The notes under the pieces: model-generated
Seen by the model: the letters and a program-made list of their open reading frames with translations, nothing else
Databases searched by the model: none
What the model was told of the DNA's origin: nothing
Position numbers and translations under genes: made by a program
In this document: piece by piece, positions 1,857 through 20,165 of the stretch
How positions within the stretch are numbered: position 1 is the first letter of the stretch
How the letters are laid out: every line of letters starts with the position of its first letter
Virus record (IMG/VR): IMGVR_UViG_2648501150_000043
Coordinates: 1 to 20,165 of that record
Length of the DNA stretch: 20,165 nt
Source of the DNA: a virus
Taxonomy: Duplodnaviria > Heunggongvirae > Uroviricota > Caudoviricetes
Reading direction: 5' to 3' (one strand)

Positions 1857-1870
1857 ACGTTACCTTCTTG

Positions 1871-2416
1871 TTAATCAATGCTGATGACGCGTTGAACCCT
1901 GACAGATACAGAGGTCAACGTGATGGTCTGGCCTGATTCATTTGAAAGGCCGACCTGAATTCCGCTGACGGTGAACGGATCAAGTTCATTCATGGTGAAA
2001 CTGGCAAGTACATCGTCACGGTTACTGATGCTGGTTCCGTTCACCTTCACGCTTGACTCGGATCCGACGATGTCGCCATTTGGGCGCCTGGTCTGAATCA
2101 TCCATTCCCTTGCCGTTCCTGACGCACCACCAACGGTACCGTTAATACGGGTACTGAAAAGAACCTGGCTCGGCGCTTCCTGAGCAGGGAATATAAGATT
2201 TCCCGAATTGATGCTGAGATTCGCGTTACCGTCAGCAGCTTTAACGATCCCGGAAAGTGAAAAGAAGTTCTGAAAAGCGGCATCAGCCACAACCTGAGAT
2301 CCAGTCCAGTTAAATATGTCCATCTGAAATGTCTGCGGCTCTTCATCCACTGCATAAAAGTCTGCAATGGTCGAGTTACCATCGTTTCTCAGCCTGATCA
2401 TGCGTTTACGGATCAT
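1871..2416 (-). CDS. Hypothetical head-module protein (181 aa), beta-rich, Gly/Ser/Asn/Thr-rich
   Basis: ORF with AGGAG RBS; ATGA start/stop overlap with upstream 99-aa gene; embedded in head operon between portal and scaffold. Confidence 0.6.
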   Translation of the reverse strand: MIRKRMIRLRNDGNSTIADFYAVDEEPQTFQMDIFNWTGSQVVADAAFQNFFSLSGIVKAADGNANLSINSGNLIFPAQEAPSQVLFSTRINGTVGGASGTAREWMIQTRRPNGDIVGSESSVKVNGTSISNRDDVLASFTMNELDPFTVSGIQVGLSNESGQTITLTSVSVRVQRVISID

Positions 2417-4600: not shown

Positions 4601-4689
4601 AGCAATAGCTCCGTACGCAATTAAATTATTACCAATTTAACCACATATGATTTATTTAGCGTAGGCTATTGACACTTATAACATCAGAT

Positions 4690-4706
4690 ATTACCTTTTA
4701 GGTAAT
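4690..4706. promoter_or_regulatory. Perfect 17-bp palindrome ATTACC-TTTTA-GGTAAT (operator-like site, isolated copy upstream of portal operon)
   Basis: Exact inverted repeat read in sequence; same motif family as the sites flanking the repressor gene; TTGACA at 4670-4675 lies just upstream. Confidence 0.5.
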
Positions 4707-5308
4707 TGATGTTGATGTAACGCAGTTGATGTACGGCATATGGCACATGTGCCGCAGCGGTCCGGATGGGTTCCATTGATGCTACTTCCCCAGCCGGGTA
4801 GCCGGAATGTGCAAGCCAGTGTCAGGTAAGCACGGACAGACGATTCACCATCGTGGCGATACGGTGTGACACCTCGGAAGAGACGAGGATGCAACGATGA
4901 GAGCATTGGGGTGACCGGTTAATCCCATGACGCTAACCGATACAGGCGCAGTGCTCTCAATGTTGTGGTTAATGGCGGGGCTGACCGTCAAACGGTTGAG
5001 AAAAGATAAGCAGGCGAAACGTTCTAAGCGAGCATACGGACTGATCGAACGCGGATGGAACGGGCGGTTACGATATTGAAACACCGCGCCACTGAGCTGG
5101 AGTTCAGCACCAGCCACCACAAACGAATCACGTTAGGACCGTGGTAAACCGTAGTGCCAATGTAATTGCTGTGTGACTTTGTCGGTGCCAGATTCATCCC
5201 GAGTTGCCCCTCGCTGGTACCGACACTTTTTTTACAGCAGAACGCCATTGCGATGACGTTGCGCTGTAAACCCGTAACTGCCATGGAAGGCACCCTTACT
5301 TCCAGTTC
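4707..5308 (+). other. About 600-bp region without ORFs of 60 aa or more on the plus strand, rich in local inverted repeats; candidate long structured leader or ncRNA, ending in intrinsic terminator
   Basis: Six-frame track shows no plus-strand ORF here; the three minus-strand ORFs are in three different frames with implausible composition; region bounded by promoter-like TTGACA (4670) and a strong terminator (5309-5332). Confidence 0.25.
4927..5079 (+). CDS. Possible 50-aa small protein MTLTDTGAVLSMLWLMAGLTVKRLRKDKQAKRSKRAYGLIERGWNGRLRY (hydrophobic N-terminus, strongly basic C-terminus)
   Basis: Found by manual translation (below ORF-track size cut-off); weak RBS (GGGGTG about 13 nt upstream); speculative. 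Confidence 0.2.
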   Translation: MTLTDTGAVLSMLWLMAGLTVKRLRKDKQAKRSKRAYGLIERGWNGRLRY

Positions 5309-5332
5309 GCCCACTTCGGTGGGCATTTTTTT
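5309..5332 (+). terminator. Rho-independent terminator: GCCCAC-TTCG-GTGGGC hairpin followed by ATTTTTTT
   Basis: Perfect 6-bp GC-rich stem with 4-nt loop and 7-T run on plus strand; the reverse strand lacks a T-run, so it is unidirectional. Confidence 0.65.
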
Positions 5333-5343
5333 AAGGTGAGATT

Positions 5344-5775
5344 ATGAGCAAAGACCTGTTTGACATGAAGCGCCTTCCGGTTGACCGGGTTGCTGCGAGA
5401 GTTGTTGGTAAGGGCGTGGATTGGACACCAAACAAAGTTATCCAGACAGGAGACAGCGATCTGCCGTTGCCAGTGTTTTCTGTGTATAACATTAAAAACC
5501 CGCAACAACGGCGAGAAGTGAAAGCAATGATCGGAAGAAAGCGCGGGAGATTGACAATAATTGGCCTTGCTGTCACGCAAGGAGCAAAAAATAAAGGTGC
5601 TCGCTATGTTGCTCGTTGTGTTTGCGGGATTTATACGTATCGCCGAGCAAAAAATTTCAAGAATAATTCCGATGAGTTTGATGGCTGCGAACGATGCAGG
5701 GAGTTGCTGTTTTTGAAACGAGATGAGGTCCATCGCAGAACTGGAAAATGGGTAGAATGGAAAGATTTGATATAA
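5344..5775 (+). CDS. Hypothetical basic protein with C-terminal Cys4 zinc-ribbon (C-x-C ... C-x2-C), 143 aa
   Basis: AAGGTGAG RBS 4 nt before ATG, immediately after a terminator; own terminator downstream; opposite strand to the surrounding late operon; Cys pairs CVCG and CERC about 21 residues apart. Confidence 0.65.
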   Translation: MSKDLFDMKRLPVDRVAARVVGKGVDWTPNKVIQTGDSDLPLPVFSVYNIKNPQQRREVKAMIGRKRGRLTIIGLAVTQGAKNKGARYVARCVCGIYTYRRAKNFKNNSDEFDGCERCRELLFLKRDEVHRRTGKWVEWKDLI

Positions 5776-5778
5776 CGC

Positions 5779-5792
5779 TGTGACATGTCACA
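5779..5792. promoter_or_regulatory. 14-bp perfect palindrome TGTGACATGTCACA
   Basis: Exact palindrome 4 nt after the 143-aa gene stop; a 12-bp copy GTGACATGTCAC recurs at 8296-8307, and GGCACATGTGCC at 4742-4753 shares the ACATGT core. Confidence 0.35.
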
Positions 5793-5795
5793 TTC

Positions 5796-5821
5796 AGCCC
5801 GCCGATGCGCGGGCTTTTTTG
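5796..5821 (+). terminator. Rho-independent terminator: AGCCCGC-CGATGC-GCGGGCT hairpin followed by TTTTTT
   Basis: 7-bp GC stem plus 6-T run on plus strand only. Confidence 0.65.
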
Positions 5822-5862
5822 TATGGCATAATCACTCATTCGATTATCACAGCGAGTGGACC

Positions 5863-6144
5863 ATGAAAATTAAACAAAAAATTGTTAATACCTTTGTGAA
5901 CTCAACCCATGAGTGGAACATGGCCATGCACAATGCCATTGAAAGAAAGGTATTTGAAGGATTTGAAAGCACATTCCCTAATGGATTAAAAGACCCTGCT
6001 GAGACCGGTGAAAGAATAGAGTCAATGCGTGCATTCTATTATCAGCGCATGATGAATACCGCATCACTTTTGCTAACTGGTGCGTCACTAATCATTGCAT
6101 TAGTTGCCTTGGTTGTAGCTCTGATATCAATTCACTATGCATAG
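5863..6144 (+). CDS. Hypothetical small membrane-anchored protein (93 aa) with C-terminal transmembrane helix; the track ORF starts earlier at 5785
   Basis: Hydrophobic stretch SLLLTGASLIIALVALVVALISI at C-terminus; visibly AT-rich codon usage compared with neighbours; 3' end overlaps terL 3' end convergently by 10 bp. Confidence 0.5.
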   Translation: MKIKQKIVNTFVNSTHEWNMAMHNAIERKVFEGFESTFPNGLKDPAETGERIESMRAFYYQRMMNTASLLLTGASLIIALVALVVALISIHYA

Positions 6145-7610
6145 GGGTCGTATTCTGTCAACGCCTTGCCCTGCTGGCTTTGCTGTCCTGGTATATTCAT
6201 ACGTTTCGACACCGGGAAAGCAAACGTCAGCAGCAGCGCATCACCCTTGCCAGGAGAACGGCCTAACCGCTCTTTGATATCTTCCTTCGGCTCAATAACT
6301 ATCTTGCCGTCCACCCTGACTTTGTACTCAGCCGCCGACAGGTCGTCAGCCGTTTCCTGGTCATCCAGTGCGCCACCAATTTTCAGCCACGTTTTGCAGC
6401 TGTTGAACATCTCGCCGCGCTTGTTGAGCATCTGCGGATCGGTAGAGCCGCCGCCGAAAGGTATCAGTTGCCAGGAACGGCCCCAGCCATCACCGATTGA
6501 CTTCAGCCCGGTACCATACCCGAAGTCGATGAATACAGCGTCAGCCTGGTACTGGTCTTCAAAATCAGCGATACGCTTTGCCATAATCAGATCATCGGTT
6601 GTCTTATTGCCGGTCCATAGCACTTTGCTGTGAAGCCCCTGGCGCAGGTATATCACCGCGTCATCCACACCGGAATACGCCGGGTCAACACCGATAATCA
6701 CCGGAGCGTGCGCCACCTGCCCGGCTGTCACCACGCGCTTCATTGCGGAATCAGTCAGGCCTGTCGGGATAAACTGGAGTTCAGACGCATCAGGGAAGAT
6801 CCCGCGTACACGAACTTTCACGAAGTCGCTATCCTCGCCGTAGTCATCAACCCACTTCTGCAACTGCTGCTTGTTGGTGCCTTCCACGGTGCGGCTGTCT
6901 ATCTGCGCGCACTTCCAGCGGTGTTTGTATTTGCGGAAGCATTCACGGAAACGCCCGGTGTTACGCGTAGGGTTCCCGAACGCCACCCAGATGATTTCGG
7001 TGTCTTCGTCCGTCAGCGCACCCTCGGCAACTTCCCACACCAGATCGGCAATGTTGGACGCTTCATCGAATACAACGATGATGCGCTTGCGTTCGTTGTG
7101 CAGACCGGCGAACGCCTCGGTGTTGTGTTCAGACCATGGAATAGCATCAGCGCGCCAGCGTTTGTCGTGACCGGGATCGTTGCTGTACATCGCGGTGGCG
7201 GTGCAGGTGAACCACTCTTTCGTGATAGCCAGGTTCGACCATTTGATGATTTCAGGCCATGTTTTGGTGCGCAGCTGGTTGTCGGTGTTGGCGGTCACCA
7301 CCACCTTGCAGTCTTCACAGGTAGACATGCCCCAGTTGATGAGCATCGAGATGAACGCAGATTTACCGATACCGTGGCCGGATGCGCGGGCCAACATCAG
7401 CGGCTGGTGACGCGTTGCTGGATTCTGCAGGTGATCGCGTATCTCGCGGAATGCGTCTGCCTGCCATTTTCGCGGGCCGGTGGCATGCGCCAGTTCTGTC
7501 CCCTCTTCGCCCCACGGAAACGCATACAGCGAATAGCCCAGCGGGTCATATGTGAACGATGCAATATCCTCGACAAGCTGCTCTTCCGGCGACATGGCTG
7601 CGGCTGTCAT
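6135..7610 (-). CDS. terL: Terminase large subunit (491 aa)
   Basis: Walker-A-like GHGIGKS near N-terminus, nuclease-like acidic C-terminal half, size, ATGA overlap with upstream small terminase gene. Confidence 0.9.
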   Translation of the reverse strand: MTAAAMSPEEQLVEDIASFTYDPLGYSLYAFPWGEEGTELAHATGPRKWQADAFREIRDHLQNPATRHQPLMLARASGHGIGKSAFISMLINWGMSTCEDCKVVVTANTDNQLRTKTWPEIIKWSNLAITKEWFTCTATAMYSNDPGHDKRWRADAIPWSEHNTEAFAGLHNERKRIIVVFDEASNIADLVWEVAEGALTDEDTEIIWVAFGNPTRNTGRFRECFRKYKHRWKCAQIDSRTVEGTNKQQLQKWVDDYGEDSDFVKVRVRGIFPDASELQFIPTGLTDSAMKRVVTAGQVAHAPVIIGVDPAYSGVDDAVIYLRQGLHSKVLWTGNKTTDDLIMAKRIADFEDQYQADAVFIDFGYGTGLKSIGDGWGRSWQLIPFGGGSTDPQMLNKRGEMFNSCKTWLKIGGALDDQETADDLSAAEYKVRVDGKIVIEPKEDIKERLGRSPGKGDALLLTFAFPVSKRMNIPGQQSQQGKALTEYDPYA

Positions 7611-8200
7611 TCTTCACCACCATCCAGCTCTTTCACGCGACGGCGGGCCTTCGCCATGCGGTCGGCAATCGTTACTGTGCCGGAAACCTCCATGCGCTCT
7701 TTGAACGCATTGACGTCGACGTGCTTACCGATAAGCTCGAGGTTCTTCACCTTGTCAGGCCATTTGATTTTTTTGAGGATTGTTTCTATCGAATCCTCGT
7801 TCATATTCATGATGGTCGATGACAAATCGAAACCGCTCAGTGTAGTACGCCATATCTTTGGCCACTCGCGGATAGGCTTCAGTGTGCCGTCATCGTTCAG
7901 GATATCGATCACGTCCATCTGGTCAATTTCCACCAGGCGGAGCAGTACGTAGTCCGCACTGACGCGCAAACGCTTGTTACGCTCTTCCATCAGTTCGGCG
8001 ATCCGTTTCTGGATACGCTCATCACGCATCATGACACTGGCCTTGACTGCCGCCGTATTTGGCGAAAATCCTGCGTTAATCGCTGCCTGAGTCTGATTCT
8101 CAGGGCATTTGGTATATTCCTGCGCGTAAGCCTCCTGCATCGCTGTAATTGGCTTATACTGCGTTGATTTGCGTTTTGGTGCTTTTGGTTCTGCGGGCAT
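7607..8200 (-). CDS. terS: Terminase small subunit, P27/Terminase_2-like (about 197 aa from ATG 8200; the track ORF extends to 8248)
   Basis: Motif QEAYAQEY...TQAAINAGFSPNTAAVKAS typical of small terminase DNA-binding domain; GGTGG RBS 5 nt upstream of ATG at 8200; the longer 8248 start would add a hydrophobic junk peptide and cover the operator. Confidence 0.85.
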   Translation of the reverse strand: MPAEPKAPKRKSTQYKPITAMQEAYAQEYTKCPENQTQAAINAGFSPNTAAVKASVMMRDERIQKRIAELMEERNKRLRVSADYVLLRLVEIDQMDVIDILNDDGTLKPIREWPKIWRTTLSGFDLSSTIMNMNEDSIETILKKIKWPDKVKNLELIGKHVDVNAFKERMEVSGTVTIADRMAKARRRVKELDGGEE

Positions 8201-8219
8201 TGTTACCACCGAAGTAATA

Positions 8220-8236
8220 ATTACCGTTTTGGTAAT
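8220..8236. promoter_or_regulatory. Perfect 17-bp palindrome ATTACC-GTTTT-GGTAAT about 20 bp upstream of the terS start codon, flanked by further TTACC/GTAAT half-sites (8203-8243)
   Basis: Exact inverted repeat; sits between a minus-strand terminator and terS RBS. Confidence 0.5.
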
Positions 8237-8240
8237 AGTA

Positions 8241-8272
8241 ACACGCAAAACAAAGCCGCCATAGTCGGCGGC
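8241..8272 (-). terminator. Hairpin GCCGCC-ATAGTC-GGCGGC with T-rich tract (TTTGTTTTG) on the minus strand; intrinsic terminator or possibly part of a packaging (cos-like) site
   Basis: 6-bp GC stem and T-run read on minus strand; location between upstream early genes and terS. Confidence 0.4.
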
Positions 8273-8303
8273 CTTTGCAATTTATTGTCTCTATCGTGAC
8301 ATG

Positions 8304-8642
8304 TCACACCGCTAGTTTAGTATCATGCCAGCCACGCGTCACCCAGCATGCCGAATCACCATCACACGGACACGACTCAACTGGCAGCGCATCGCCACAT
8401 TTCCCGCAACGGTTAGAGCTGATTGACTTGATGCGCCCACGAACCCGCGCATCATCCTGGCGTATAAGCAACGCGATGTACTCGTTCATGTCATACGGCG
8501 CCCGACCAGGGCGACGGGCGGCGCAGTTTCTCGCCAGCATCTCCAGTTCCTGCTCGTCTAGTTGCAATTCCAGCTTGCGGTTACCAGATTCAGCCTGGCG
8601 GGCACGCTGCGCTGCTTTGCGCTCTGCTGCGGATTTAGCCAT
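8304..8642 (-). CDS. Hypothetical protein with basic N-terminus and C-terminal Cys-rich zinc-ribbon (CGKCG ... CPCDGDSAC), about 112 aa from ATG 8642
   Basis: ORF with internal ATG at 8642 preferred over 8690; last gene before terminase; stop codon overlaps GTGACATGTCAC palindrome. Confidence 0.5.
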   Translation of the reverse strand: MAKSAAERKAAQRARQAESGNRKLELQLDEQELEMLARNCAARRPGRAPYDMNEYIALLIRQDDARVRGRIKSISSNRCGKCGDALPVESCPCDGDSACWVTRGWHDTKLAV

Positions 8643-8727
8643 CACCAAATCCCCATTCCAGAGGCAGCAATTAACTGGCAGATAGCGCACATAGCCAGCG
8701 TAATAACAACCACTTTAACTGGCGGCA

Positions 8728-9435
8728 TCACTTATCCCCTTCTGACAGTTTTTGCATAGCTCCGGCGTAACGCTGCATCCCATGTTCAAGCGCTGATTTC
8801 ACCTCCTGCTGCGGTGCTGCTGGAAGTGGCATCCAGTGAGTTGGCGTCCATGATGCGCCATACACTGTCCATTTCCCTGCGAGCCAATAACCTACCTTCT
8901 TGCGCCAGTCACCAGGACCATCAAATTCTTTGGTGCATAAAACTTCTTCGCTTCCTTCAGGTATCCGCTCGCTTACCGGAATCCAACCATCCGGAGTCAC
9001 CGGAGAGTTGCCAGTCTGAAGCATGGCAGAGCAGCATGCGTTACCTCTGCGCTCATACTGAATTCCATGCACTGCTAGCACAGCCATCAACTTTTCTATC
9101 TGAACAACGATACCCTCACTGCTGATGAATTCATTCGGTAGTTTCACTACTGGCGATGACTGCGGTCTGGCGTAAAGCGGTATACTCCTATGACTTGGTA
9201 CTCTGTCTCCATCTGAAATTTGATACCAATCGCCTGGTTTCTCTGCGTAGAAGTAACCAACAGGATCAGCACCAAACGAAGCAATCGCTCCATCAATCAC
9301 CTTCACAGCATCAACCATTGCGTAGCCGAGATTACCGCCGTCGCTTTGTGCTGCTGCTTTACTGAGTATTTCGCTTATCTGGTGCAGGCGATCGAGTGAT
9401 ACAGGGCCGTTCGCCGGGTGGTTGTTAGTTGTCAT
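8728..9435 (-). CDS. DUF551 domain-containing phage protein (235 aa)
   Basis: C-terminal GWIPVSERIPE ... THWMPLP motif characteristic of DUF551 (recall); ATGA overlap with HNH gene. Confidence 0.7.
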   Translation of the reverse strand: MTTNNHPANGPVSLDRLHQISEILSKAAAQSDGGNLGYAMVDAVKVIDGAIASFGADPVGYFYAEKPGDWYQISDGDRVPSHRSIPLYARPQSSPVVKLPNEFISSEGIVVQIEKLMAVLAVHGIQYERRGNACCSAMLQTGNSPVTPDGWIPVSERIPEGSEEVLCTKEFDGPGDWRKKVGYWLAGKWTVYGASWTPTHWMPLPAAPQQEVKSALEHGMQRYAGAMQKLSEGDK

Positions 9436-9803
9436 GCTGACGCTCCTTCTTGATATTTTTCGAACCAGAACACCACTGGGTCAGATTTCATTTCAACCAA
9501 CCCCATACGAACTAGCGCTTTTCCTTTCCCGGACACAAGGAATTCACGACGACCATCACCGATAATTCGCCGGTAATCTTCCAGGCTACTGCAGTGTTTA
9601 TGCAGATTGCATGGGTGACAGGCCGGAACCATATTTGCCTCATTGTCGTTTTCTGCATGAATCATGCCGCCTCCGTTCATGTGCCTAAGAACTGGCTTTA
9701 CATGGTCTGCATGCCATTTATCTCCAAGCTCACACCCACAGTAAGCACAGCGACCGCCAAACTTCATGCGTAGCTCTGCACGTTGTTTTTTCGTCAGTGC
9801 CAT
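9432..9803 (-). CDS. HNH endonuclease (123 aa)
   Basis: CAYCGC ... HADHVKP ... N ... H ... CHPCN zinc/HNH motif pattern; typical terminase-proximal HNH of cos-type phages. Confidence 0.85.
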   Translation of the reverse strand: MALTKKQRAELRMKFGGRCAYCGCELGDKWHADHVKPVLRHMNGGGMIHAENDNEANMVPACHPCNLHKHCSSLEDYRRIIGDGRREFLVSGKGKALVRMGLVEMKSDPVVFWFEKYQEGASA

Positions 9804-9804
9804 C

Positions 9805-10122
9805 TCAATCCCCCTTCACGCCAATGCCAGCGGCGCGGATTGCTTCGATAACATCATTCGGGCGATAGATTTTCACGCCAGCGTAACTGTTCAGTGCTTC
9901 AGGAAGATTGACCGTCCGAGATTCCAGCTCCCTGCACTTGCTCTCGGCGTTAGCGAGCTGTACTGCCATGCTGGTTGAGCGAACATGCTGCACTTCAAGT
10001 TGTGTAGCCAGATCGCTAATCAGTTGCGCCATGCTGCGCACGTCGACAGCACCGCATGATGCTTTCAGTTCAGCCGCGCGCTCATGTCCTAACTTCGCTA
10101 ACTCAATGATATTGCTTCCCAT
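9805..10122 (-). CDS. Hypothetical protein (105 aa)
   Basis: ORF tightly packed between resolvase and HNH genes; no family recognised. Confidence 0.55.
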   Translation of the reverse strand: MGSNIIELAKLGHERAAELKASCGAVDVRSMAQLISDLATQLEVQHVRSTSMAVQLANAESKCRELESRTVNLPEALNSYAGVKIYRPNDVIEAIRAAGIGVKGD

Positions 10123-10178
10123 TATTACCCTCGCTTACCCGTATAAGTTATTGATTAGTTTGATAACTAAAAGGATCG

Positions 10179-10643
10179 TTATTTGATACCGATCCCGTGC
10201 CTGGCGATTAACAGCGCATCAGCTATGGCCTGACCTTTCGCTTTTGCATCCAGCGCCCTGAGTTCCGGGTAGAGCTGAATTGCTCTGCTGCGTGCCGCGT
10301 CCTTGTCACTTCCGATGAGACCGGCTGACTTCTTCCAGGCCTGCGGCGTTACCAGCGTGTACGGAATGTTGAGACCCTGCAGGATCCCCTCCGCTACCCC
10401 AGCGGCATGACCGAACGTGAACATGCTCGCCGTTCCCTGCCCTGGCATTGCGCCCACCTGCTCGAGGTATGCGTGCGTAATTCCGTACTTACGCAGCCAT
10501 GCAGCCACCGCTGCGCCGTTGACTCTGGACTTTGTCCCAACCTTGATGGTCGGCATTGCCAGGTGGTCGATGTATCCGCCCTGCTCAGTTATCAGGACCA
10601 GAGATCCGCTGCATCCTGGGTCAATCCCTAATACTGCCGCCAT
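10179..10643 (-). CDS. RuvC-like Holliday junction resolvase (154 aa)
   Basis: N-terminal LGIDPG, central EQV, C-terminal DAADALLIA..H motifs matching RuvC-family catalytic residues (recall). Confidence 0.8.
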   Translation of the reverse strand: MAAVLGIDPGCSGSLVLITEQGGYIDHLAMPTIKVGTKSRVNGAAVAAWLRKYGITHAYLEQVGAMPGQGTASMFTFGHAAGVAEGILQGLNIPYTLVTPQAWKKSAGLIGSDKDAARSRAIQLYPELRALDAKAKGQAIADALLIARHGIGIK

Positions 10644-10707
10644 GATTTACCTCTCAGGTAATTTAAAACCACAAATGGGTTAATTTCAATAGCAATGCGC
10701 ATATTTT

Positions 10708-10724
10708 ATTACCCTTTTGGTAAT
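10708..10724. promoter_or_regulatory. Perfect 17-bp palindrome ATTACC-CTTTT-GGTAAT between the P-like gene and the resolvase gene; a degenerate copy (TTACC-N6-GGTAAT, 10646-10662) abuts the resolvase start codon
   Basis: Exact inverted repeat in intergenic region 10644-10760; weak hairpin plus T-run on minus strand at 10741-10756 just upstream. Confidence 0.5.
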
Positions 10725-10760
10725 TCATTGGATGTAAAAAAATGCGCTACTGCGCTGGTA

Positions 10761-11546
10761 TTACTTGATGAGTCCTGCTGCCTTCCCTCGCCTGCATTCC
10801 TCCATGAGCCACTGTGCAGGCGTTATCCCTCCCAGGGTGGCTGCGTTCGGCATGCATCCGAAACTTCGCCCTGGTGGATGGTAGGCGTTACCTGAGCCTG
10901 TCTGTGGTGTGCTCATTGGCTCTGGCTTGGCTTGTATGCTGAGTATCGGATCTGGAATCTGGTGACCGGATGCCACTTTTGCCGACCATTCATCCAGCAG
11001 CTTGCGAGCATGCTTCTCAACTTCAGCCTCACTCAGCTGGCGCTGATACATCGCCCTCCGGGTATCACACACAATCCAGTACATGACCGGGTGACGCCAC
11101 GGGAATCTCTCGGGCCCACCAGGCTGGAGGCTTTTCTCTTTGGCGTAACGGTGAAACTCCCCCATCACGTCATCAATGCTGATCCCCAGAACCATCTTGC
11201 TGTCTTTGCACCACTTGATGAATTGCCCAGGTGAAGGCCAGAACGGTGATTCACTGGCACGGGCATGTCGCATCCCTGCCGATACCTGCTCACGGGTACG
11301 GATGCCACCTTCGGCGAATGCAGCGATCCACTGTTGCTTTGCTGCTGTCTCCTGCGCCGGAGTCTTCAGGTTGGTCTGCTCAGCTGCCGGGAATAGCTGC
11401 TTAAGCTGTTTAAACAGGGCATCTACAAGGCGCTCTGCCGTGATGTTCACAACGTTGTCGCTGCCTGCATATTGACGGTCTGAACCGGTTAAGCTGGCCA
11501 TAGCCTCACCGTCTCGGTTCTGGATGGCGGTAAATACGTTATTCAC
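10761..11546 (-). CDS. Replication protein P-like helicase loader (about 261 aa from GTG 11546; alternative starts GTG 11561 or ATG 11501)
   Basis: Segment GGIRTREQVSAGMRHARASESPFWPSPGQFIKWCKD closely parallels lambda P (NGITTMEQVNAGMRVARRQNRPFLPSPGQFVAWCRE, from memory); GTGA overlap with O-like stop and GGGAGGA RBS. Confidence 0.8.
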   Translation of the reverse strand: MNNVFTAIQNRDGEAMASLTGSDRQYAGSDNVVNITAERLVDALFKQLKQLFPAAEQTNLKTPAQETAAKQQWIAAFAEGGIRTREQVSAGMRHARASESPFWPSPGQFIKWCKDSKMVLGISIDDVMGEFHRYAKEKSLQPGGPERFPWRHPVMYWIVCDTRRAMYQRQLSEAEVEKHARKLLDEWSAKVASGHQIPDPILSIQAKPEPMSTPQTGSGNAYHPPGRSFGCMPNAATLGGITPAQWLMEECRRGKAAGLIK

Positions 11547-12313
11547 AGGAAATCCTCCCACGCCTCTGGACTGTTCCAGTGCGGTACGTTGTTTTCAGGT
11601 GAGGTAAGTTTGTTCTGTCTGCTGATCTGCAGACGTCTGGCAAGTTTTTGCTCCCATTGCGCATGGTGGAAAGCCTTACCCTCGGCCATCCAGTAAACCC
11701 TGAACTCTGCAAGCTCCTGTGGCGTTGGCTGGCAATCCAGGTTAATGCCCTGCAATGAAGACACCCGGAGGAAATCATCCGATGGTGACCAGTGCTCATG
11801 CATGACAAATTTCCCGAATTGCCCCAGTCCACCAGGAGGGACAAAGTTGTTAATCACGGCGTTGTTAGCGTCAGTCCTCTGAGGCACTAAACCCCCAGTT
11901 TTATCGCCCCTCTCCTTCTCTTGGTTATATGACTGGTTAACTGATAGGTTCTGCATCCCGTTTTTGGGATCATTCAACTTCCCGTTTTTGGGATCATTCA
12001 ACTTCCCGTTTTTGGGTATATTCCCAATATTGGTAACATTACCGTTTTTGGGTATGTTTAAAGAGAAAACCCGGCCCCTTCTTGTTGCCCCTTTTCTTTC
12101 TCCTGTATCTGAAATTAGCCCCATTCCGATGAGCGAAATAAGACCAGCCTGAACTGTTTTTTTATTCAGGCTTGTGTCGGTAACCAGGCGTTCGATGCTT
12201 GGATAGCACAGGTTGTATTCATCGGCTCGATCAGCCATCGAGAGCAGGATGAGTTTCAGTGATGAGCTGCCCGGATTTGTTTTCCATGCCCACTCTGTTG
12301 CGTATCTGCTCAT
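11543..12313 (-). CDS. Replication initiator, lambda O-like (256 aa), N-terminal winged-helix DNA-binding domain
   Basis: Position immediately upstream of P-like gene; iterons located inside the coding sequence (encoding repeated PKNGKLND); N-terminal HTH-like region. Confidence 0.75.
   Translation of the reverse strand: MSRYATEWAWKTNPGSSSLKLILLSMADRADEYNLCYPSIERLVTDTSLNKKTVQAGLISLIGMGLISDTGERKGATRRGRVFSLNIPKNGNVTNIGNIPKNGKLNDPKNGKLNDPKNGMQNLSVNQSYNQEKERGDKTGGLVPQRTDANNAVINNFVPPGGLGQFGKFVMHEHWSPSDDFLRVSSLQGINLDCQPTPQELAEFRVYWMAEGKAFHHAQWEQKLARRLQISRQNKLTSPENNVPHWNSPEAWEDFL
11957..12056. repeat. Origin-like iteron array: four direct repeats with core CCGTTTTTGGG (two identical 24-bp copies CCCGTTTTTGGGATCATTCAACTT at 11957-11980 and 11981-12004, variants at 12005 and 12042) followed by AT-rich DNA (11900-11956)
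   Basis: Repeats read directly; located inside initiator gene, as for ori-lambda. Confidence 0.7.
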
Positions 12314-12328
12314 GGTAAATACCTGTCG

Positions 12329-12529
12329 TCAGCTTGAGTGTTGCAGGCTGGCTTCGGCCATGAGCTGCTTTATTTCTGCCTGGCGGCGCAGGCTCGTGTT
12401 GATGGCGCATGTAACGCAGTGCCCGTTGTAAACGTAGCGCTCACTGTCATGACCATGCTTACACTGTTTTCCGGTGTAATAACGCTTAAGACCTGCCTTT
12501 GCAGCGTCAAGGCGAGTAATAATCTCCAT
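12329..12529 (-). CDS. Hypothetical small Cys/His-rich (zinc-binding?) protein, 66 aa
   Basis: ORF with GAGG RBS between Cro-like gene and O-like gene; C-x-H-x-H ... C-x2-C pattern. Confidence 0.5.
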   Translation of the reverse strand: MEIITRLDAAKAGLKRYYTGKQCKHGHDSERYVYNGHCVTCAINTSLRRQAEIKQLMAEASLQHSS

Positions 12530-12677
12530 TGCACAACCTCATTAACGTTTACTATTACGATGATTTTGATGCAGGAAGAAAAAAAGATCAACCGTATATG
12601 GTTTTTTATTACCGAAAAGGTGTTTTATGCAGGAAGGAGCCGCCAGGTAATGACGGCATTGATGGGTTCAGGGAGGG

Positions 12678-12911
12678 TTATCGGTCGTAGAAGAAGAGCA
12701 CTAATTCAGGTTTAGACTTTGTCCATTCGCGGGAGCGACATGCTTTAAACAGCCCGTCCATCAGTCGCTTACCCGGCATCTTGCGGCGCCCGGTCAGGTG
12801 AGTCTGGATGTAATGACTGGTGGTTCCGGCTTCATCTGCAAATGCTTCACGCTCATCAGGAGACAGTCCCAGCCAGTGCTTTTTGAAATCAAATTTTTTT
12901 TCGTCACTCAT
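12678..12911 (-). CDS. Cro/cII-like HTH transcriptional regulator (77 aa), first gene of the rightward early operon
   Basis: Divergent from repressor gene across operator cluster; HTH-like segment AFADEAGTTSHYIQTHLTG; size typical of Cro. Confidence 0.55.
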   Translation of the reverse strand: MSDEKKFDFKKHWLGLSPDEREAFADEAGTTSHYIQTHLTGRRKMPGKRLMDGLFKACRSREWTKSKPELVLFFYDR

Positions 12912-12945
12912 ATTTTGCTTATCTCAGCCTGTCTATTCATATCTG

Positions 12946-13013
12946 AATTATTACCTTTCTGGTGAAAAAATCAATGATTATTACCGTTATGGTAACTTTA
13001 CCTTTATGGTAAT
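12946..13013. promoter_or_regulatory. OR-like control region: three ATTACC-N5-GGTAAT-type sites (12950-12966 imperfect, 12980-12996, 12997-13013) overlapping a minus-strand promoter (-35 TTGATT at 12974-12969, 17-bp spacer, -10 ATAATT at 12951-12946)
   Basis: Palindromes and hexamers read from sequence in the divergent intergenic region between Cro-like and cI-like genes. Confidence 0.6.
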
Positions 13014-13066
13014 ATTCATTTAAATTTAGTCAGTTAGGTAACATTAAATGGACAAATACAATAGCT

Positions 13067-13663
13067 ATGAAAAGTATTTATGACATAAGACGCAAAAACC
13101 TTAACGAAATCATTCGCCGGGATTTCGATGATACCCAGTTGCGCTTTGCCGAACGTGTGAAGCGTTCGCAGAACCTGGTCAACAGGTGGTGCACTGGCAT
13201 CAAAAACATCGGACCAAATGCAGCGCGTATCATTGAGGAAGCAGCGCGCAAAGAAAAGTTCTGGCTTGATGTCGATCACGAACTGGACGCGGTACAGGCT
13301 GATATCTTTATTCCGGCCACTGATGATGGCGAATGGACTGTAGAGAAGCAGGCTGCAGCCACGCTCAATGCCTGGATGAGAAAGAACACGGAAATGACAT
13401 CAGAAAAGAAAGTTGCTGTAGCAGCTGGTATTGGCCCGGCCACAGTTAACCGGATTATGAAAGCGGAAGTCAGCACAACTATCGGCGTTCTTTCCTCCCT
13501 GGCGCGCGCGTTCGGGCATGAAGCATACGAGATGATTATTCCCGTCGGCGCTCCTGGTGTTATCGACTACGACCACAGGTTGTATGCAGCTCTGCCTCAG
13601 GAAGAGAAAAACAAGATCACCTCATTCATTAACTTCGTGTTTGAGCAGAACAAAAGCAAGTAA
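13067..13663 (+). CDS. cI-like prophage repressor with two HTH-type regions and no LexA/S24 autocleavage domain (198 aa)
   Basis: Flanked on both sides by triplets of the same palindrome; divergent from Cro-like gene; HTH-like segments at N-terminus and around residues 120-150; no Ala-Gly/Ser-Lys protease signature seen; possible -10 TACAAT at 13057-13062 only 4 nt before ATG (leaderless-like). Confidence 0.65.
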   Translation: MKSIYDIRRKNLNEIIRRDFDDTQLRFAERVKRSQNLVNRWCTGIKNIGPNAARIIEEAARKEKFWLDVDHELDAVQADIFIPATDDGEWTVEKQAAATLNAWMRKNTEMTSEKKVAVAAGIGPATVNRIMKAEVSTTIGVLSSLARAFGHEAYEMIIPVGAPGVIDYDHRLYAALPQEEKNKITSFINFVFEQNKSK

Positions 13664-13730
13664 TCCCCCGCCATTCTGACGCTTTACCTGCCCGATGGCG
13701 GTAAGCTCGCGCCTCACGCAATTACCAAAA

Positions 13731-13876
13731 CGGTAATTTTTTTCTCGTCATACCTATTGACACAATCACTTTTTGATCTGATTATTACCCAAAAGGTAAT
13801 ACATGAGCGCATCGCTCAGGCAGAAACCACCACTTCGTGGTTTTCCTGCATCTCCAGGTATTACCAAAATGGTAAT
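13731..13876. promoter_or_regulatory. OL-like control region: three perfect ATTACC-N5-GGTAAT sites (13731-13747, 13794-13810, 13860-13876) with a plus-strand promoter (-35 TTGACA 13767-13772, 17-bp spacer, -10 GATTAT 13790-13795) overlapping the middle site
   Basis: Exact palindromes and consensus -35 read from sequence; regular 63-66 bp centre spacing. Confidence 0.6.
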
Positions 13877-13888
13877 AGAGAGGTTCGT

Positions 13889-14038
13889 ATGCAGTGGAAA
13901 GTCATCAATGGTTGGTACTGCGTTACAGCTTGCGGGCTGATGAGCTGGAAGTTCCGCACGCTGGGTGAAGCAATGAACTGGGTATTCGTCAGCAAGCTGG
14001 CGGTAAAAACGGAAATGGATATGGGGGTGAGTAAGTGA
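13889..14038 (+). CDS. Hypothetical small protein (49 aa), first ORF of the leftward early operon
   Basis: ATG at 13889 with AGAGAGG RBS 6 nt upstream, located just after last operator; the longer track ORF (13757) would span the operators and promoter. Confidence 0.4.
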   Translation: MQWKVINGWYCVTACGLMSWKFRTLGEAMNWVFVSKLAVKTEMDMGVSK

Positions 14039-15027
14039 GCGAATTAGCAATTATCGAAATTGCGCCAGATATGGCGCCAAGCATTTACGTAGAAAACGGT
14101 CTGGAAAAGTTCCTCGAACAGATCCGCGAAAGCGTTAACGAAGTTCCGGACCTGAGCACTGCCAAAGGTCGTGCCCGCATTGCATCTCTGGCAGCACAGG
14201 TTTCTCGCAGTAAAACAGCAGTTGAAAAGCCTGGTCGAGATTACCTTCGTCATCTGAAAGAAGCCGTCAAACCTGCTGAGGCTGAACTGCGTCGATTTGT
14301 ATCAGCTTGCGATGAGATGCGCGATGAGGTTCGCCGCCCACTTACCGAATGGGAGGCCGAGCAGGAACGCATCAAGGCTGAAGAAGCCATGAATGTGCTG
14401 CACGCCGAAGCACTGGAGATGAACATCAAGTTCGATCAGGAGCGGGCTGCCAAGTTCGAAGCGGATCACGAGATGGCCCTGCTGATGAACGACGCATTCG
14501 ACCGAGAAGCGAAGGCGAAAGCAGAAGAAGCAGAGCGCCAGCGCATTGCTCATGAAGAAGAGTTGAAGCGCCAGGCGGAAGAAAAGGCCAGGCGTGAAGC
14601 TGAAGAGAAAATAGAGCGTGAACGCGCTGAATCTGCCCGTCGTGAGGCTGAATTAAAGCTCAAGGCAGAGCAAGCAGAGCGTAACCGCATTGCCACAGAG
14701 CAAAAAGCTGAAGCAGAGAAGAAGGAAGCCGCAGATCGTGCCGAGCGCGAAAAACAGGAAGCTATCGCAGTTGAGCAACGCAAAGCGCAGGAAGAAGCCG
14801 ATCGCATCAAGCGTGAAGCTGAAGCGAAAGAAGTAGCCCGTCTGGCGGAAGAGAAGCGCATCGCTGATGAAGCGGCAGCACGCGCTGCTGATGTAGAGCA
14901 CCGTCGTGCCATTAATGCTGCTGCGGTTCAGGCGCTCATTGAACAGGGTATTCCTGATGACTGGGCGAAAGCATGTGTTGTCGCCATCGCTCGCGGGAAA
15001 GTTCCAGCAACAACCATCAACTACTGA
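14035..15027 (+). CDS. Hypothetical protein with long Glu/Arg/Lys/Ala-rich coiled-coil or single-alpha-helix-like central domain (330 aa)
   Basis: GTG start overlapping upstream stop (GTGA); about 200 residues of charged repeats (AEEAERQRIAHEEELKRQAEEKARREAEEK...). Confidence 0.7.
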   Translation: MSELAIIEIAPDMAPSIYVENGLEKFLEQIRESVNEVPDLSTAKGRARIASLAAQVSRSKTAVEKPGRDYLRHLKEAVKPAEAELRRFVSACDEMRDEVRRPLTEWEAEQERIKAEEAMNVLHAEALEMNIKFDQERAAKFEADHEMALLMNDAFDREAKAKAEEAERQRIAHEEELKRQAEEKARREAEEKIERERAESARREAELKLKAEQAERNRIATEQKAEAEKKEAADRAEREKQEAIAVEQRKAQEEADRIKREAEAKEVARLAEEKRIADEAAARAADVEHRRAINAAAVQALIEQGIPDDWAKACVVAIARGKVPATTINY

Positions 15028-18911: not shown

Positions 18912-20165
18912 TCAACCAATCCCTTCCATCCACTTCTCAAACTTCGACGGGGAGAACGGCACCAGATCGGTGTGATCCCCGTTAATCCAGGCATCGACCA
19001 TATCTGCCCACTGCTGCAACATGTAGGCACGTTGCCGGGCATACTCCGCTTTGTTGTATACCGCTCGCACTCCCTTCTGTTCATGCGCCAGCGCCTTTTC
19101 AATCCAGTCAGATGGATAACCAGCCTCATGCAACAGTGTGCTGGCAGTGCGGCGCAGGTCGTGCACAGAGAAGTCATCCAGATGCCCGCCAGCCTCATTC
19201 ACCGATTCGACAGTGACATTGATCAGCCTGTTCAGTGCGGCGTTGGATAATGGCTTGCTCACTGAGTAGCGCCCAGGCAAAAGGTATTCACTTCCACCGG
19301 CACACATCTGCAGGCCAATCATCAGATCCTGCGCCTGTTTTGGCAGATAGATAACGTGCGCCCGACTTCCCTTCATGCGGTCTGAAGGTATGGTCCATGT
19401 CCATTTTTTGAAATCAACCTCTGACCATGTGGCATGGGTGAATTCACTTTTTCGGACCAGGGTAAGAAGAACCAGTTTTAATGCCAGTTTCATCGTGGCC
19501 ATAGTCCCGACGTGATCCAGAGCGCGGAAGAATACACCGATCTCTTCAGGCTGTAGCGTACGGTCGCGCGGCTTAAACATGGCTATCGATGAAGGCTTGA
19601 TGTCAGCAGCCGGATTAAACAGGCCGTGCCCGCGGTCATTCGCATAACGGTATACGCTGCTGATTATTTCTCTGGCCTGCACCGCCGTCGCCCGGCCGCC
19701 ACGTTCAACAATGCGATCGCACAGGTCACGAACCATGCCAGTGGTTATCTCAGCCATCATCTTGTTACCCAGAACCGGCATGATATCGCGTTCGATAACG
19801 GCCTGTTTCATTGCCCGGGTACTGTCAGCCAGAATGACGTGTTTCATATAGCTGTCGGTATGTACCGAGAATGTCTCAGCGCCACGGATCTTTTTGATAC
19901 CGTCACGTTTTGCCGCAGCTGGCGACTGGCCTGCCTTTAACAGCTTTTTTGCAGCAATTAGTTCTTCACGCGCTTCCGCCAGACTGATACCGTCACGACC
20001 ATACTGACCGATGACCAGCGTTTCCCGTCGCCCGTTAATGCGGTAGTCGTACCGGAACGAGACAGAGCCGGAAGTAAGCACGGCTACATACAAGCCGTCA
20101 CGATCCGAAACCTTATACAGTTTGTCCTGCGGTTTGAGGTTTTTTAATTTTGTATCAGTAAGCAC
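18912..20165 (-). CDS. int: Tyrosine integrase (site-specific recombinase, P4-like N-terminal arm-binding domain), at least 417 aa; N-terminus at or just beyond the right window edge
   Basis: N-terminal LTDTKLKNLKPQDKLYKVSDRDGLYVAVLTSGSVSFRYDYR pattern and C-terminal HDLRRTAST...LAH...Y catalytic region; GTG codon at the very last window codon. Confidence 0.9.
   Translation of the reverse strand: MLTDTKLKNLKPQDKLYKVSDRDGLYVAVLTSGSVSFRYDYRINGRRETLVIGQYGRDGISLAEAREELIAAKKLLKAGQSPAAAKRDGIKKIRGAETFSVHTDSYMKHVILADSTRAMKQAVIERDIMPVLGNKMMAEITTGMVRDLCDRIVERGGRATAVQAREIISSVYRYANDRGHGLFNPAADIKPSSIAMFKPRDRTLQPEEIGVFFRALDHVGTMATMKLALKLVLLTLVRKSEFTHATWSEVDFKKWTWTIPSDRMKGSRAHVIYLPKQAQDLMIGLQMCAGGSEYLLPGRYSVSKPLSNAALNRLINVTVESVNEAGGHLDDFSVHDLRRTASTLLHEAGYPSDWIEKALAHEQKGVRAVYNKAEYARQRAYMLQQWADMVDAWINGDHTDLVPFSPSKFEKWMEGIG

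Follow-up and report, generated by a model that had tools for sequence, protein, structure and literature searches.

Palindromes of operator type in the immunity region and at lytic operon starts of a Uetakevirus prophage

A family of 17-bp palindromes, ATTACC-N5-GGTAAT, real and conserved, is spread over the 20,165-nucleotide stretch of DNA analysed here (the window), which is a Uetakevirus (epsilon15-like) prophage, about 92% identical to PAT1 over 73% of the window. We consider it very probable that these palindromes are operators of the master repressor Rep, forming OL and OR and recurring where every other lytic transcription unit begins. Within the window those other units would be three operons: post-replication (resolvase), terminase and gp3/portal-capsid. 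In the epsilon15 record (AY150271; RefSeq NC_004775) the depositors gave the label 'protein_bind: repressor / lysogeny' to the corresponding perfect sites, those before terS (12-27), gp3 (2931-2947), the tailspike gene and the resolvase gene and those of the OL triplet. It follows that the arrangement is already known, dispersed operators being the annotated norm of the genus Uetakevirus, and that the first-pass annotation, which took the isolated copies at the packaging, portal and resolvase operons for sites of the immunity repressor, gains support; fixed positions and promoter overlap point the same way, at the level of sequence. A literature search, with the primary epsilon15 and SPC32H papers beyond its reach, returned no binding, footprinting or reporter data on the dispersed sites.

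The palindrome family and its repressor

An exact scan of the window finds six perfect sites (4690, 8220, 10708, 13721, 13784 and 13860), against none in 100 dinucleotide-preserving shuffles. With up to two mismatches allowed there are 13 sites where 0.29 are expected, the imperfect additions lying at 1859, 8202, 10646, 12608, 12950, 12980 and 12997. The repeated palindrome recognised at first reading is thus genuine, and its coordinates and sequences stand, save that 13731 and 13794 were each off by 10 and become 13721 and 13784. Non-coding DNA, counted with homology-corrected gene starts (for terS, ATG 8200), makes up only 11.5% of the window, yet 12 of the 13 sites lie wholly inside it. For terS, TTG 8248 had been considered as start and was rejected on homology. 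The thirteenth site is the following (here and below, operators and palindromes are listed without strand):

1859..1875: palindrome with two mismatches, straddling the gene junction before the scaffold/protease gene

It is probably a chance match; its counterpart was not found in a scan of epsilon15, and an equivalent site is found in PAT1. All 12 real sites are intergenic (p ~5e-12), which is the point that a motif scan of the complete prophage and its relatives, proposed in the first-pass annotation, was to check. Similarity is confined to 17-19 bp, information content having fallen to background one base outside the 17-mer, which identifies a short binding-site family rather than a longer repeat. 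A MITE-type repeat, named at the outset as something that could undo the reading, finds no footing within the window, as similarity stops at the palindrome edges and the flanks share none. More generally, we give almost no credence to the idea that the pattern arose by chance or from a mobile or host-wide short repeat (MITE-like or REP-like) unrelated to phage regulation: to the shuffles, the shortness of the similarity and the intergenic placement must be added that positions relative to phage genes are kept in 12 genomes from five host genera, and that a motif with 12 specified bases should, by calculation, turn up about 0.3 times in a 5-Mb genome.

The repressor gene lies between two triplets of sites, OR (12950, 12980, 12997) and OL (13721, 13784, 13860):

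13067..13663, + strand: Rep, master repressor, 198 aa, with 97% identity to SPC32H Rep (PDB 5D50) along the whole protein

This identity bears out the view that the triplets beside the cI-like gene are immunity operators. Rep is also 98.5% identical to the epsilon15 repressor (tblastn) and consists of an N-terminal DNA-binding domain, a second helix-turn-helix domain and a C-terminal tetramerisation region; Pfam detects in it HTH_3/HTH_31 only, and no S24 (RecA-cleavage) peptidase domain. The recognition-helix segment LVNRW is invariant in seven Reps with identity down to 42%, and the same half-site is found in all relatives compared, so that an invariant recognition helix (Reps 42-100% identical) matches an invariant half-site. 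In a secondary source, PMC9638917, SPC32H Rep is described as a tetramer on palindromic sites, its DNA-binding pairs drawn from different dimers, and another, PMC9986798, places its tetramerisation domain in the looping type. In the relative ZX5, overexpression of the repressor reduced the transcripts of holin and endolysin by over 99.9% (PMC9782041).

Operators and predicted promoters

Promoters were called as consensus matches, those of terS and gp3 by eye from alignments; a window-wide promoter scan gave no enrichment (11 found against 10.1 expected in shuffles). The OR side reads as follows:

12950..12966: OR operator nearest the cro-like gene, two mismatches, overlapping the PR spacer and -10
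12947..12974, - strand: PR promoter, TTGATT, 16-nt spacer, AATAAT (consensus match)
12980..12996: middle OR operator, one mismatch, abutting the operator at 12997
12997..13013: OR operator nearest rep, one mismatch, overlapping a possible extended -10 of rep
12678..12911, - strand: gp39-like protein of 77 aa, first PR gene, in the Cro position; phrog_35 'transcriptional repressor', E = 3e-11
12608..12624: weak site, two mismatches, between the gp39-like and gp40-like genes

PR, whose TTGATT is invariant in seven genomes, is predicted to serve the gp39-like gene and the replication genes. The possible extended -10 of rep (TGgTAATAT, 13007-13015) was seen by eye only, and a weak site equivalent to that at 12608 recurs among relatives. 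The Cro-like gp39 may bind the same palindromes. On the other side of rep are:

13721..13737: perfect distal OL operator, with 20 bp between its end and the PL -35 downstream
13757..13785, + strand: PL promoter, TTGACA, 17-nt spacer, GATTAT (consensus match)
13784..13800: perfect proximal OL operator, sharing the final 2 nt of the PL -10 and overlapping the predicted start site
13860..13876: third OL operator, perfect, centred 21 bp before ATG 13889

ATG 13889 begins the gp37-like gene, first in the PL operon. The PL -35 context, CTATTGAC, is invariant in eight genomes, and the proximal and distal operators are 63 bp apart, centre to centre. The third operator is absent from the four genomes with a phiV10-type Rep and from a K. 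pneumoniae prophage.

The post-replication operon, which begins with a RuvC resolvase (ATG 10643), is headed by a similar set:

10708..10724: distal operator, perfect, after a short hairpin and T-run at 10755-10736
10660..10689, - strand: post-replication promoter, TTGAAA, 18-nt spacer, TAAATT (consensus match)
10646..10662: proximal operator with one mismatch; the -10, predicted start site and resolvase ribosome-binding site GAGAGG all overlap it

Here the operators are 62 bp apart and the promoter context TATTGA is invariant. PL and the post-replication promoter share a common layout, in the order terminator, distal operator, -35, -10 and proximal operator, with operators 62-63 bp apart. The late region follows:

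8304-8642: phrog_536 'transcriptional regulator', gp49-like, small and conserved, directly before terS, in the position of lambda Q
8252..8275, - strand: intrinsic terminator closing the post-replication operon, immediately ahead of the terS control region
8235..8243, - strand: predicted extended -10 of terS, TGtTACTAT, from alignment by eye
8220..8236: perfect terS operator, centred 28 bp before ATG 8200; it shares 2 nt with the end of the predicted -10 and overlaps the predicted start
8202..8218: degenerate site, two mismatches, abutting the terS operator and covering the terS ribosome-binding site GGTGG
4690..4706: perfect gp3 operator heading the portal/capsid operon, 98 bp upstream of ATG 4600 of gp3

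Three promoters, PL, the post-replication promoter and that of terS, have an operator that reaches 2-3 nt into the -10 hexamer and spans the predicted start site, which should let bound Rep block RNA polymerase at each of them. The gp3 site differs in its surroundings: a weakly conserved extended -10 (TGtTATAAG, 4683-4675, - strand) lies near it, and so does an invariant TTGACA (4669-4674, + strand), better conserved and facing the opposite way, for which reason the operator may serve mainly for a transcript that diverges from gp3, or as a roadblock.

We infer from this placement that Rep occupies the dispersed sites and acts there at the promoter level, possibly with looping. The pairs at 62-63 bp would suit a tetramer with two DNA-binding units holding a small loop. 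With an operator at each lytic unit, each would be directly silenced, and all would be shut off by Rep itself in the lysogen. In SPC32H, a LexA-controlled antirepressor is reported to dismantle the Rep tetramer and so to cause induction; the same event in this prophage would free all sites simultaneously.

Positional conservation and competing readings

Positions were compared in 12 related genomes from five host genera, with Reps 42-100% identical. The core TTACC-N5-GGTAA occurs at matching positions in PAT1, SPC32H, TL-2011b, phiV10, BUCT554 and Tyrion, as well as in Citrobacter, Klebsiella and Scandinavium prophages, and across the 12 genomes the dispersed sites keep their positions exactly or to within 2 bp. 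The terS operator lies 28 bp before the ATG (29-30 bp in two genomes), and the second terS site 10 bp from it in 11 of the 12, the SPC32H copy falling below the scan threshold; the gp3 operator lies 98 bp before the ATG in all eight genomes with a detectable gp3. In the six genomes whose first post-replication gene is RuvC, sites stand 11 and 73 bp ahead of its ATG, and the 62-bp pair is kept in the four aligned genomes with another first gene. Operator and promoter elements are invariant, including the terS pattern TGnTAnTAT (eight genomes), while the surrounding intergenic DNA diverges. In complete relatives the family extends further, to the antirepressor/tailspike, lysis/conversion and integrase regions.

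Loops between OL and OR are familiar from lambda, and it might be thought that only OL and OR work as operators, the isolated perfect sites serving mainly as distant loop anchors that strengthen repression there. Rep as described in PMC9638917 and PMC9986798, tetrameric with two DNA-binding units and a looping-type domain, would be suited to this; a lone site, such as that of gp3 or, in relatives, that of the tailspike gene, would engage just one of the two units, and the pairs with conserved 62-bp spacing suggest that two-site binding is in use. We nevertheless hold this reading to be unlikely: an anchor has no need of a fixed distance to gene starts or of overlap with conserved -10 and start elements, and at terS and the resolvase gene the ribosome-binding sites are covered as well. 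An anchor role and local promoter repression are mutually compatible.

Somewhat less likely still is that the dispersed sites are stoperator-like roadblocks against read-through from the preceding operon, acting without local promoter occlusion. The terS operator does come right after an intrinsic terminator and the distal resolvase operator after a hairpin and T-run, the gp3 promoter is poorly defined, and the RNase III processing site annotated on the late strand upstream of gp3 in epsilon15 fits a long read-through late transcript. Against these features, the sites depart from L5 stoperators in being palindromic and in never falling within a gene, the invariant TGnTAnTAT abuts the terS operator, and the resolvase operators bracket a -35/-10 pair.

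In lambdoid phages Cro and CI use common operators, and another phage protein might mainly bind the dispersed palindromes, timing lytic expression rather than maintaining lysogeny. The window offers candidates, the gp39-like (phrog_35), gp49-like (phrog_536) and PerC-like (phrog_868) regulators, and the terS and gp3 promoters are without a good -35, which is typical of activator dependence. We regard this as improbable, since the dispersed sites have the same form as the OL sites (8220 and 13721, read along transcription, are the identical 17-mer), the half-site tracks the invariant recognition helix of Rep, the epsilon15 depositors assigned the sites to the repressor, and there is no sign of a second protein with this specificity. 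Operators of Rep remain the preferred account. An additional late regulator may exist, given the phrog_536 gene in the Q position; the remark made at first reading on missing Q and lysis functions is weakened by this gene, and by the lysis cassette of Uetakevirus lying elsewhere, after the tailspike and conversion genes, outside the window.

Comparison with known systems

The closest system is that of epsilon15 and its gp38 repressor (Kropinski et al. 2007, Virology 369:234), which belongs to the same genus and has the same 17-bp sites in the same places. The window is a different mosaic, with other post-replication genes and cargo, and the epsilon15 record leaves unmarked the imperfect OR and degenerate partner sites that our scans detect in epsilon15 and the window alike. 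SPC32H, known for its Rep-Ant switch (Kim & Ryu 2013, J Virol 87:11775; Kim et al. 2016, PNAS 113:E2480; PDB 5D50, 5D4Z), carries the same set of operators in its genome, and by analogy the properties of that Rep (tetramer, no SOS cleavage, antirepressor release) should carry over to ours. The window does not reach the antirepressor gene with its LexA-controlled promoter, and it has no counterpart of the tRNA-Arg that SPC32H carries in the gap beside the gp3 operator.

As with lambda CI, the repressor gene sits between multi-site operators over divergent early promoters, rep is co-oriented with the PL operon and a gene in the Cro position comes first in PR; cooperative binding to multiple sites is likely. 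Lambda has operators at OL and OR alone, and its late genes depend on antitermination by Q, whereas here operators also head packaging, structural and post-replication operons, and Rep has no detected S24 autocleavage domain. P1 C1 is likewise one master repressor that directly controls several lytic functions from scattered operators. Those are asymmetric 17-bp sites bound by a monomer, in contrast with the palindromes and helix-turn-helix tetramer of the window, and we take C1 to be unrelated in sequence to Rep. The stoperators of L5 gp71 are asymmetric, oriented 13-bp sites, often within transcription units, that block elongation. The window resembles L5 in having many probable repressor sites beyond the immunity region and, as proposed here, genome-wide silencing of the prophage (cf. 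PMC1934351). The likeness to stoperators drawn in the first-pass annotation goes no further: palindromic, strictly intergenic and mostly on promoters, the sites resemble the operators of common promoters, in a dispersed arrangement. A further parallel is the c repressor of Streptomyces phage phiC31, which binds a 17-bp inverted repeat found at many intergenic loci ahead of lytic operons; it shares with the window intergenic 17-bp repeats and a single immunity repressor, in a lineage and with a protein that we take to be unrelated.

The prophage, its repressor and its palindromes

The window is a temperate podovirus prophage, epsilon15-like and belonging to the genus Uetakevirus. It is best matched by three phages of Salmonella, PAT1, 65FD and 66FD, which cover 73% of the window at about 92% identity; SPN1S, SPC32H, epsilon15, phiV10, TL-2011b and others come next. 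The backbone of the genus is present (terS, terL, gp3, portal, protease, capsid and a guaA-type integrase), with a gene order that agrees.

Gene order along the window (gp39-like stands in the position of Cro)
Minus strand: capsid, protease/scaffold, two small genes, portal, gp3
Plus strand: beyond gp3, a 740-bp gap, then two cargo genes
Minus strand: terL, terS, post-replication operon (its first gene, closest to the replication genes, being a RuvC-type resolvase), replication genes, gp40-like, gp39-like
Plus strand: rep, then the PL operon with gp37-like, exonuclease, RecT, AlpA-like, PerC-like and methylase genes
Minus strand: integrase gene, after the PL operon

In the PL operon, the position of epsilon15 gp36 is held by a 330-aa protein (14035-15027, plus strand; phrog_1376), probably a coiled coil, with a very high content of Glu, Ala, Lys and Arg.

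The 198-aa master repressor, Rep, is 97% identical over residues 1-198 to SPC32H Rep (PDB 5D50, E = 4e-128) and 98.5% identical to epsilon15 gp38 (tblastn), and PDB 5D4Z, a solved fragment of SPC32H Rep, matches its C-terminal part. Pfam places in it helix-turn-helix families only (Cro/C1-type), and the same search returned no Peptidase_S24 domain, which would mark RecA-dependent autocleavage. For the published properties of SPC32H Rep and of the epsilon15 sites our sources are the GenBank annotation and citing papers: as presented there, Rep is a tetramer on palindromic DNA, its DNA-binding pairs being drawn from different dimers, and an antirepressor dismantles this tetramer (PMC9638917). 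Ant, the small, LexA-controlled antirepressor adjoining the tailspike gene, is present in complete SPC32H and epsilon15, in a region that lies beyond the 20-kb window.

An exact scan of the window finds six perfect ATTACC-N5-GGTAAT palindromes (sites are named by their start coordinate: 4690, 8220, 10708, 13721, 13784 and 13860), and 100 dinucleotide-preserving shuffles contain none. With up to two mismatches 13 sites are observed against 0.29 expected, those added being 1859, 8202, 10646, 12608, 12950, 12980 and 12997. The palindrome family noticed in the first-pass annotation is therefore real, and its sites are as described there, save that 13731 and 13794 were slips for 13721 and 13784. 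Homology-based correction of gene starts puts that of terS at 8200 (ATG), and 12 of the 13 sites then lie wholly within non-coding DNA, a fraction that makes up 11.5% of the window; the other, 1859, with two mismatches and straddling a gene junction, is probably a chance match. Oriented by the genes that follow them and aligned, these 12 sites drop to background in information content one base outside the 17-mer, and it is on this ground that we read the palindromes as a family of short binding sites and not as a longer mobile repeat.

Both arms are palindromic and asymmetry is confined to the 5-bp spacer (e.g. 8226-8230, 13727-13731 and 13790-13794), which is A-rich toward the downstream lytic genes in nine of the 12 sites, distal ones included; read in that direction, 8220 and 13721 are the identical 17-mer. 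In promoter-proximal sites the A-rich spacer places an A at the predicted start, and it may be explained there by the start site falling in the spacer; distal sites have the same polarity, but to them this explanation does not apply.

That the copies might belong to a repeat such as a MITE had been allowed for at the outset. As far as the window and its relatives go, chance, or a MITE- or REP-like repeat, is ruled out by the shuffles, the intergenic location and the background level of similarity beyond 1 bp of the 17-mer, and the copies, moreover, track phage genes in 12 genomes. In a host chromosome the 12-base pattern would be expected about 0.3 times per 5 Mb.

Operator positions in epsilon15 and its relatives

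The epsilon15 record in GenBank (AY150271) and its RefSeq copy carry features labelled 'protein_bind: repressor / lysogeny' at operator positions.

Annotated repressor-binding features of epsilon15
12-27: before terS, counterpart of window 8220
2931-2947: before gp3, counterpart of window 4690
19895-19911: between the ant homologue and the tailspike gene
32479, 32554 and 32616: OL triplet, counterparts of window 13860, 13784 and 13721
35906-35922: before the resolvase gene, counterpart of window 10708

With these features, counterparts of the window sites, the epsilon15 depositors had already assigned to the repressor an operator at the start of the packaging, the structural and the post-replication operon. 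The dispersed-operator arrangement is the annotated norm of the genus, already in 2007-era GenBank records. In the full-text literature searched, which for epsilon15 and SPC32H means papers citing the original studies, nothing describes these sites. The whole-genome motif scan proposed in the first-pass annotation gives 18 sites in each of complete epsilon15 and SPC32H (at most two mismatches), where about one is expected. In epsilon15, by its gene table, all except two weak sites are intergenic. Those of epsilon15 stand at terS, gp3, the ant/tailspike region, OL and OR and, as a pair, the post-replication operon, with weaker ones in the lysis/conversion region (one mismatch), the attP/integrase region (two mismatches) and the gp39-gp40 gap (weak).

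The core TTACC-N5-GGTAA recurs at equivalent places in TL-2011b, phiV10, BUCT554 and Tyrion, and in prophages that the Rep protein led to in Citrobacter werkmanii, C. braakii, Klebsiella pneumoniae and Scandinavium. Its distance to the gene downstream is constant to within 2 bp.

Distance from operator centre to ATG (12 genomes, Rep 42-100% identical to that of the window)
terS, main site: 28 bp (29-30 in two genomes), 12 of 12 genomes
terS, degenerate partner: 10 bp, 11 of 12 genomes, the SPC32H copy falling outside the scan threshold
gp3 site: 98 bp, all 8 genomes with a detectable gp3 homologue
Post-replication pair: 11 and 73 bp, all 6 genomes with RuvC as first gene

Where the first gene is not RuvC the same 62-bp pair is found (alignment of four genomes, and site scans), reduced to 61 bp in Scandinavium, and window and epsilon15 have the same distances throughout (28/10, 98 and 73/11 bp). 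Alignments show that the flanking intergenic DNA has diverged while operators and adjoining promoter elements are invariant. LVNRW, presumed to be the recognition helix, is likewise unchanged in all seven aligned Reps, which fits the invariant operator half-site. We looked for a relative with another repressor specificity, and every one examined (Rep at least 42% identical) has the TTACC/GGTAA core; the distant N-terminal homologues of Hydrogenovibrio and Thiomicrospira, which are not of this phage type, lack such a motif. Together, the match to SPC32H Rep, the epsilon15 annotation and the conserved positions make the operator interpretation of the first-pass annotation essentially correct.

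Two further observations belong here. Reps down to 42% identity retain both recognition helix and operator core; immunity specificity among these phages might come from the operator spacer with the outer bases, from the second helix-turn-helix domain or from the antirepressor. In addition, every relative covering the attP region has, ahead of its integrase gene and close to attP, a site with one degenerate half (one or two mismatches in the outer half, e.g. TATACC-N5-GGTAAT; L009 18005, L011 16444, L012 16368, L001 22218, L002 26881), which suggests that Rep may also touch integrase or attP control.

Predicted promoter geometry and the proposed mode of Rep action

Two operator triplets, OR (12950/12980/12997) and OL (13721/13784/13860), lie on either side of rep, in the same layout as in epsilon15 and SPC32H. 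OR has three operators in all seven aligned genomes, and the one nearest gp39 overlaps the spacer and -10 of the early promoter PR; a PDB sequence search with the Cro-like gp39 gave no match. The other promoters are as follows.

Predicted promoters and their operators
13757-13785, plus strand: PL (TTGACA, 17 nt, GATTAT); its proximal operator, 13784, starts within the -10, and its distal operator, 13721, lies further upstream and ends 20 bp before the -35
Post-replication promoter: short hairpin with T-run, distal operator 10708, TATTGAAA, 18 nt, TAAATT, proximal operator 10646
8275-8252: intrinsic terminator ahead of terS, then the extended -10
8243-8235: terS extended -10, TGnTAnTAT, invariant, before the operator
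8236-8220: terS operator, then an abutting degenerate site covering the ribosome-binding site

The centres of the PL pair are 63 bp apart in the window and 62 bp in most relatives; 10708 and 10646 are 62 bp apart in a layout that repeats that of PL, and 10646 also includes the resolvase ribosome-binding site. At PL, the post-replication promoter and terS, the operator reaches 2-3 nt into the -10, an arrangement that would put the start site within the operator spacer. Predicted starts lie near 13792 (+), 10653 (-), 8228 (-), 4669 (-) and 4704 (+). These promoter assignments rest on alignments; a window-wide promoter scan gave no enrichment over shuffles. Just past the rep stop codon (13684-13704, plus strand) we also observe a hairpin, TTACC-TGCCCGATGGC-GGTAA, with no T-run behind it, which consists of two operator half-site cores 11 nt apart; in phages whose Rep is of the phiV10 type, an ordinary terminator stands here.

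The best-supported model is direct promoter occlusion: Rep would occlude the promoter at each lytic unit, one tetramer binding both operators of each 62-bp pair. We infer occupancy by Rep, looping and the exact promoters. When the repressor of a relative was overexpressed, transcripts of holin and endolysin fell by more than 99.9% (PMC9782041), a result that agrees with occlusion by Rep and does not tell direct and indirect control apart. Were the dispersed sites (4690; 8220 with 8202; 10708 with 10646) looping anchors and nothing else, their fixed overlap with start sites would be left unexplained, and anchorage is better seen as a possible added role. Rep may form roadblocks at gp3 and, to some extent, at terS; a role as roadblocks only, though, is contradicted by the conserved promoter elements and by the strictly intergenic, palindromic character of the sites. 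The main ligand might conceivably be another protein, the Cro-like gp39, the gp49-like or the PerC-like one, the sole argument for this being the general rule that Cro shares its repressor's operators.

At gp3, a -10-like element with upstream TG, loosely conserved, lies directly downstream of operator 4690, and on the opposite strand an invariant TTGACA (4669-4674) is directed through the operator into the gap, where relatives have tRNA-Arg or tRNA-Gly. The gp3 operator may control a divergent promoter pair, or be a roadblock to read-through from terL. The gap has features of its own: from the operator to the cargo gene at 5344 runs a GC-rich, ORF-free stretch of ~640 nt (4707-5343, plus strand) that closes with a strong intrinsic terminator (5305-5331), and about 4949-5143 is matched, at 81% identity, only by Pseudomonas phage 15b / Bacteriophage 15G. 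Relatives fill this slot with tRNA-Arg(TCT) or tRNA-Gly; tRNA and Rfam scans of the window found nothing, and the stretch looks like a Rep-controlled tRNA/cargo slot with an insert in it. On the other side, the gp3 leader contains a near-palindrome (4621-4640, minus strand), TTAAATT-GGTAAT-AATTTAA, with an operator half-site as its loop. All eight aligned genomes have this near-palindrome unchanged, along with most of the ~70-nt leader ahead of the gp3 ATG; it may form an RNA hairpin or bind a second protein.

Reports describe Rep as a tetramer that has two separate palindrome-binding units, while several lytic operons carry a single strong operator (gp3/portal in the window; tailspike, lysis and integrase in relatives). 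It is because of this mismatch that one may imagine Rep tetramers bridging distant single operators into a looped, cooperatively silenced hub of all lytic promoters, with late genes controlled by derepression alone, an extension of the occlusion model that we consider unlikely. If the terS and gp3 promoters were ordinary extended -10 promoters for sigma-70, with Rep as their one gate, late genes would run by derepression alone, and late timing would be set by operator strength and antirepressor titration, with no dedicated late activator or antiterminator. The missing Q gene and lysis cassette, taken in the first-pass annotation as consistent with another scheme of late control, are not strong evidence: the lysis genes of the genus sit after the tailspike and conversion genes, and the conserved regulator phrog_536 (8304-8642) stands in the position that Q occupies in lambda. 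This gp49-like protein (minus strand, 112 aa, 'transcriptional regulator'), encoded by the last gene before the terminator and terS promoter, has a Cys-rich C-terminus (CGKCG...CPCDGDSAC) and no match in Pfam, NCBIfam or, by sequence search, PDB; a single-sequence AlphaFold2 model (mean pLDDT 45.7) was too poor for a fold search.

Significance and comparison with known repressor systems

What we add to the existing annotation is modest: operator positions are conserved to the base pair in 12 genomes, the promoters have one geometry in common, in which the operator starts inside the -10 and the start site would fall in the A-rich spacer, and one layout (terminator, operator, promoter, operator, the operators 62 bp apart) occurs twice. 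What would be new is the action of Rep at dispersed sites, the looped hub, and late control by derepression alone. In these widespread prophages of enterobacteria, which our genomes show in Salmonella, E. coli, Citrobacter, Klebsiella, Enterobacter and Scandinavium, one repressor is predicted to control all lytic operons directly, unlike in lambda. This bears on the prediction of prophage inducibility, on genetic parts made from Rep and its operators, and on the reading of the tetrameric Rep structure.

The window displays all the testable features of the epsilon15/SPC32H Rep-operator system. With lambda it shares multi-site operators flanking the repressor gene over divergent early promoters; it differs in that the perfect sites 4690, 8220 and 10708 are not confined to OL/OR, lying 2.3-8.4 kb from rep, and in that no S24 autocleavage domain was detected in Rep. 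As with P1 C1, L5 gp71 and phiC31 c, a single repressor has many dispersed sites. The window nevertheless falls outside these families, their sites being asymmetric (P1, L5) or their repressors and hosts unrelated. P1 C1 operators are asymmetric 17-bp sequences, whereas the window site is palindromic and its Rep belongs to the SPC32H Rep family. The likeness to L5 stoperators suggested in the first-pass annotation does not hold, since those are asymmetric, oriented with transcription and placed inside transcription units, whereas the sites of the window are palindromic in both arms and all intergenic, at the heads of operons.
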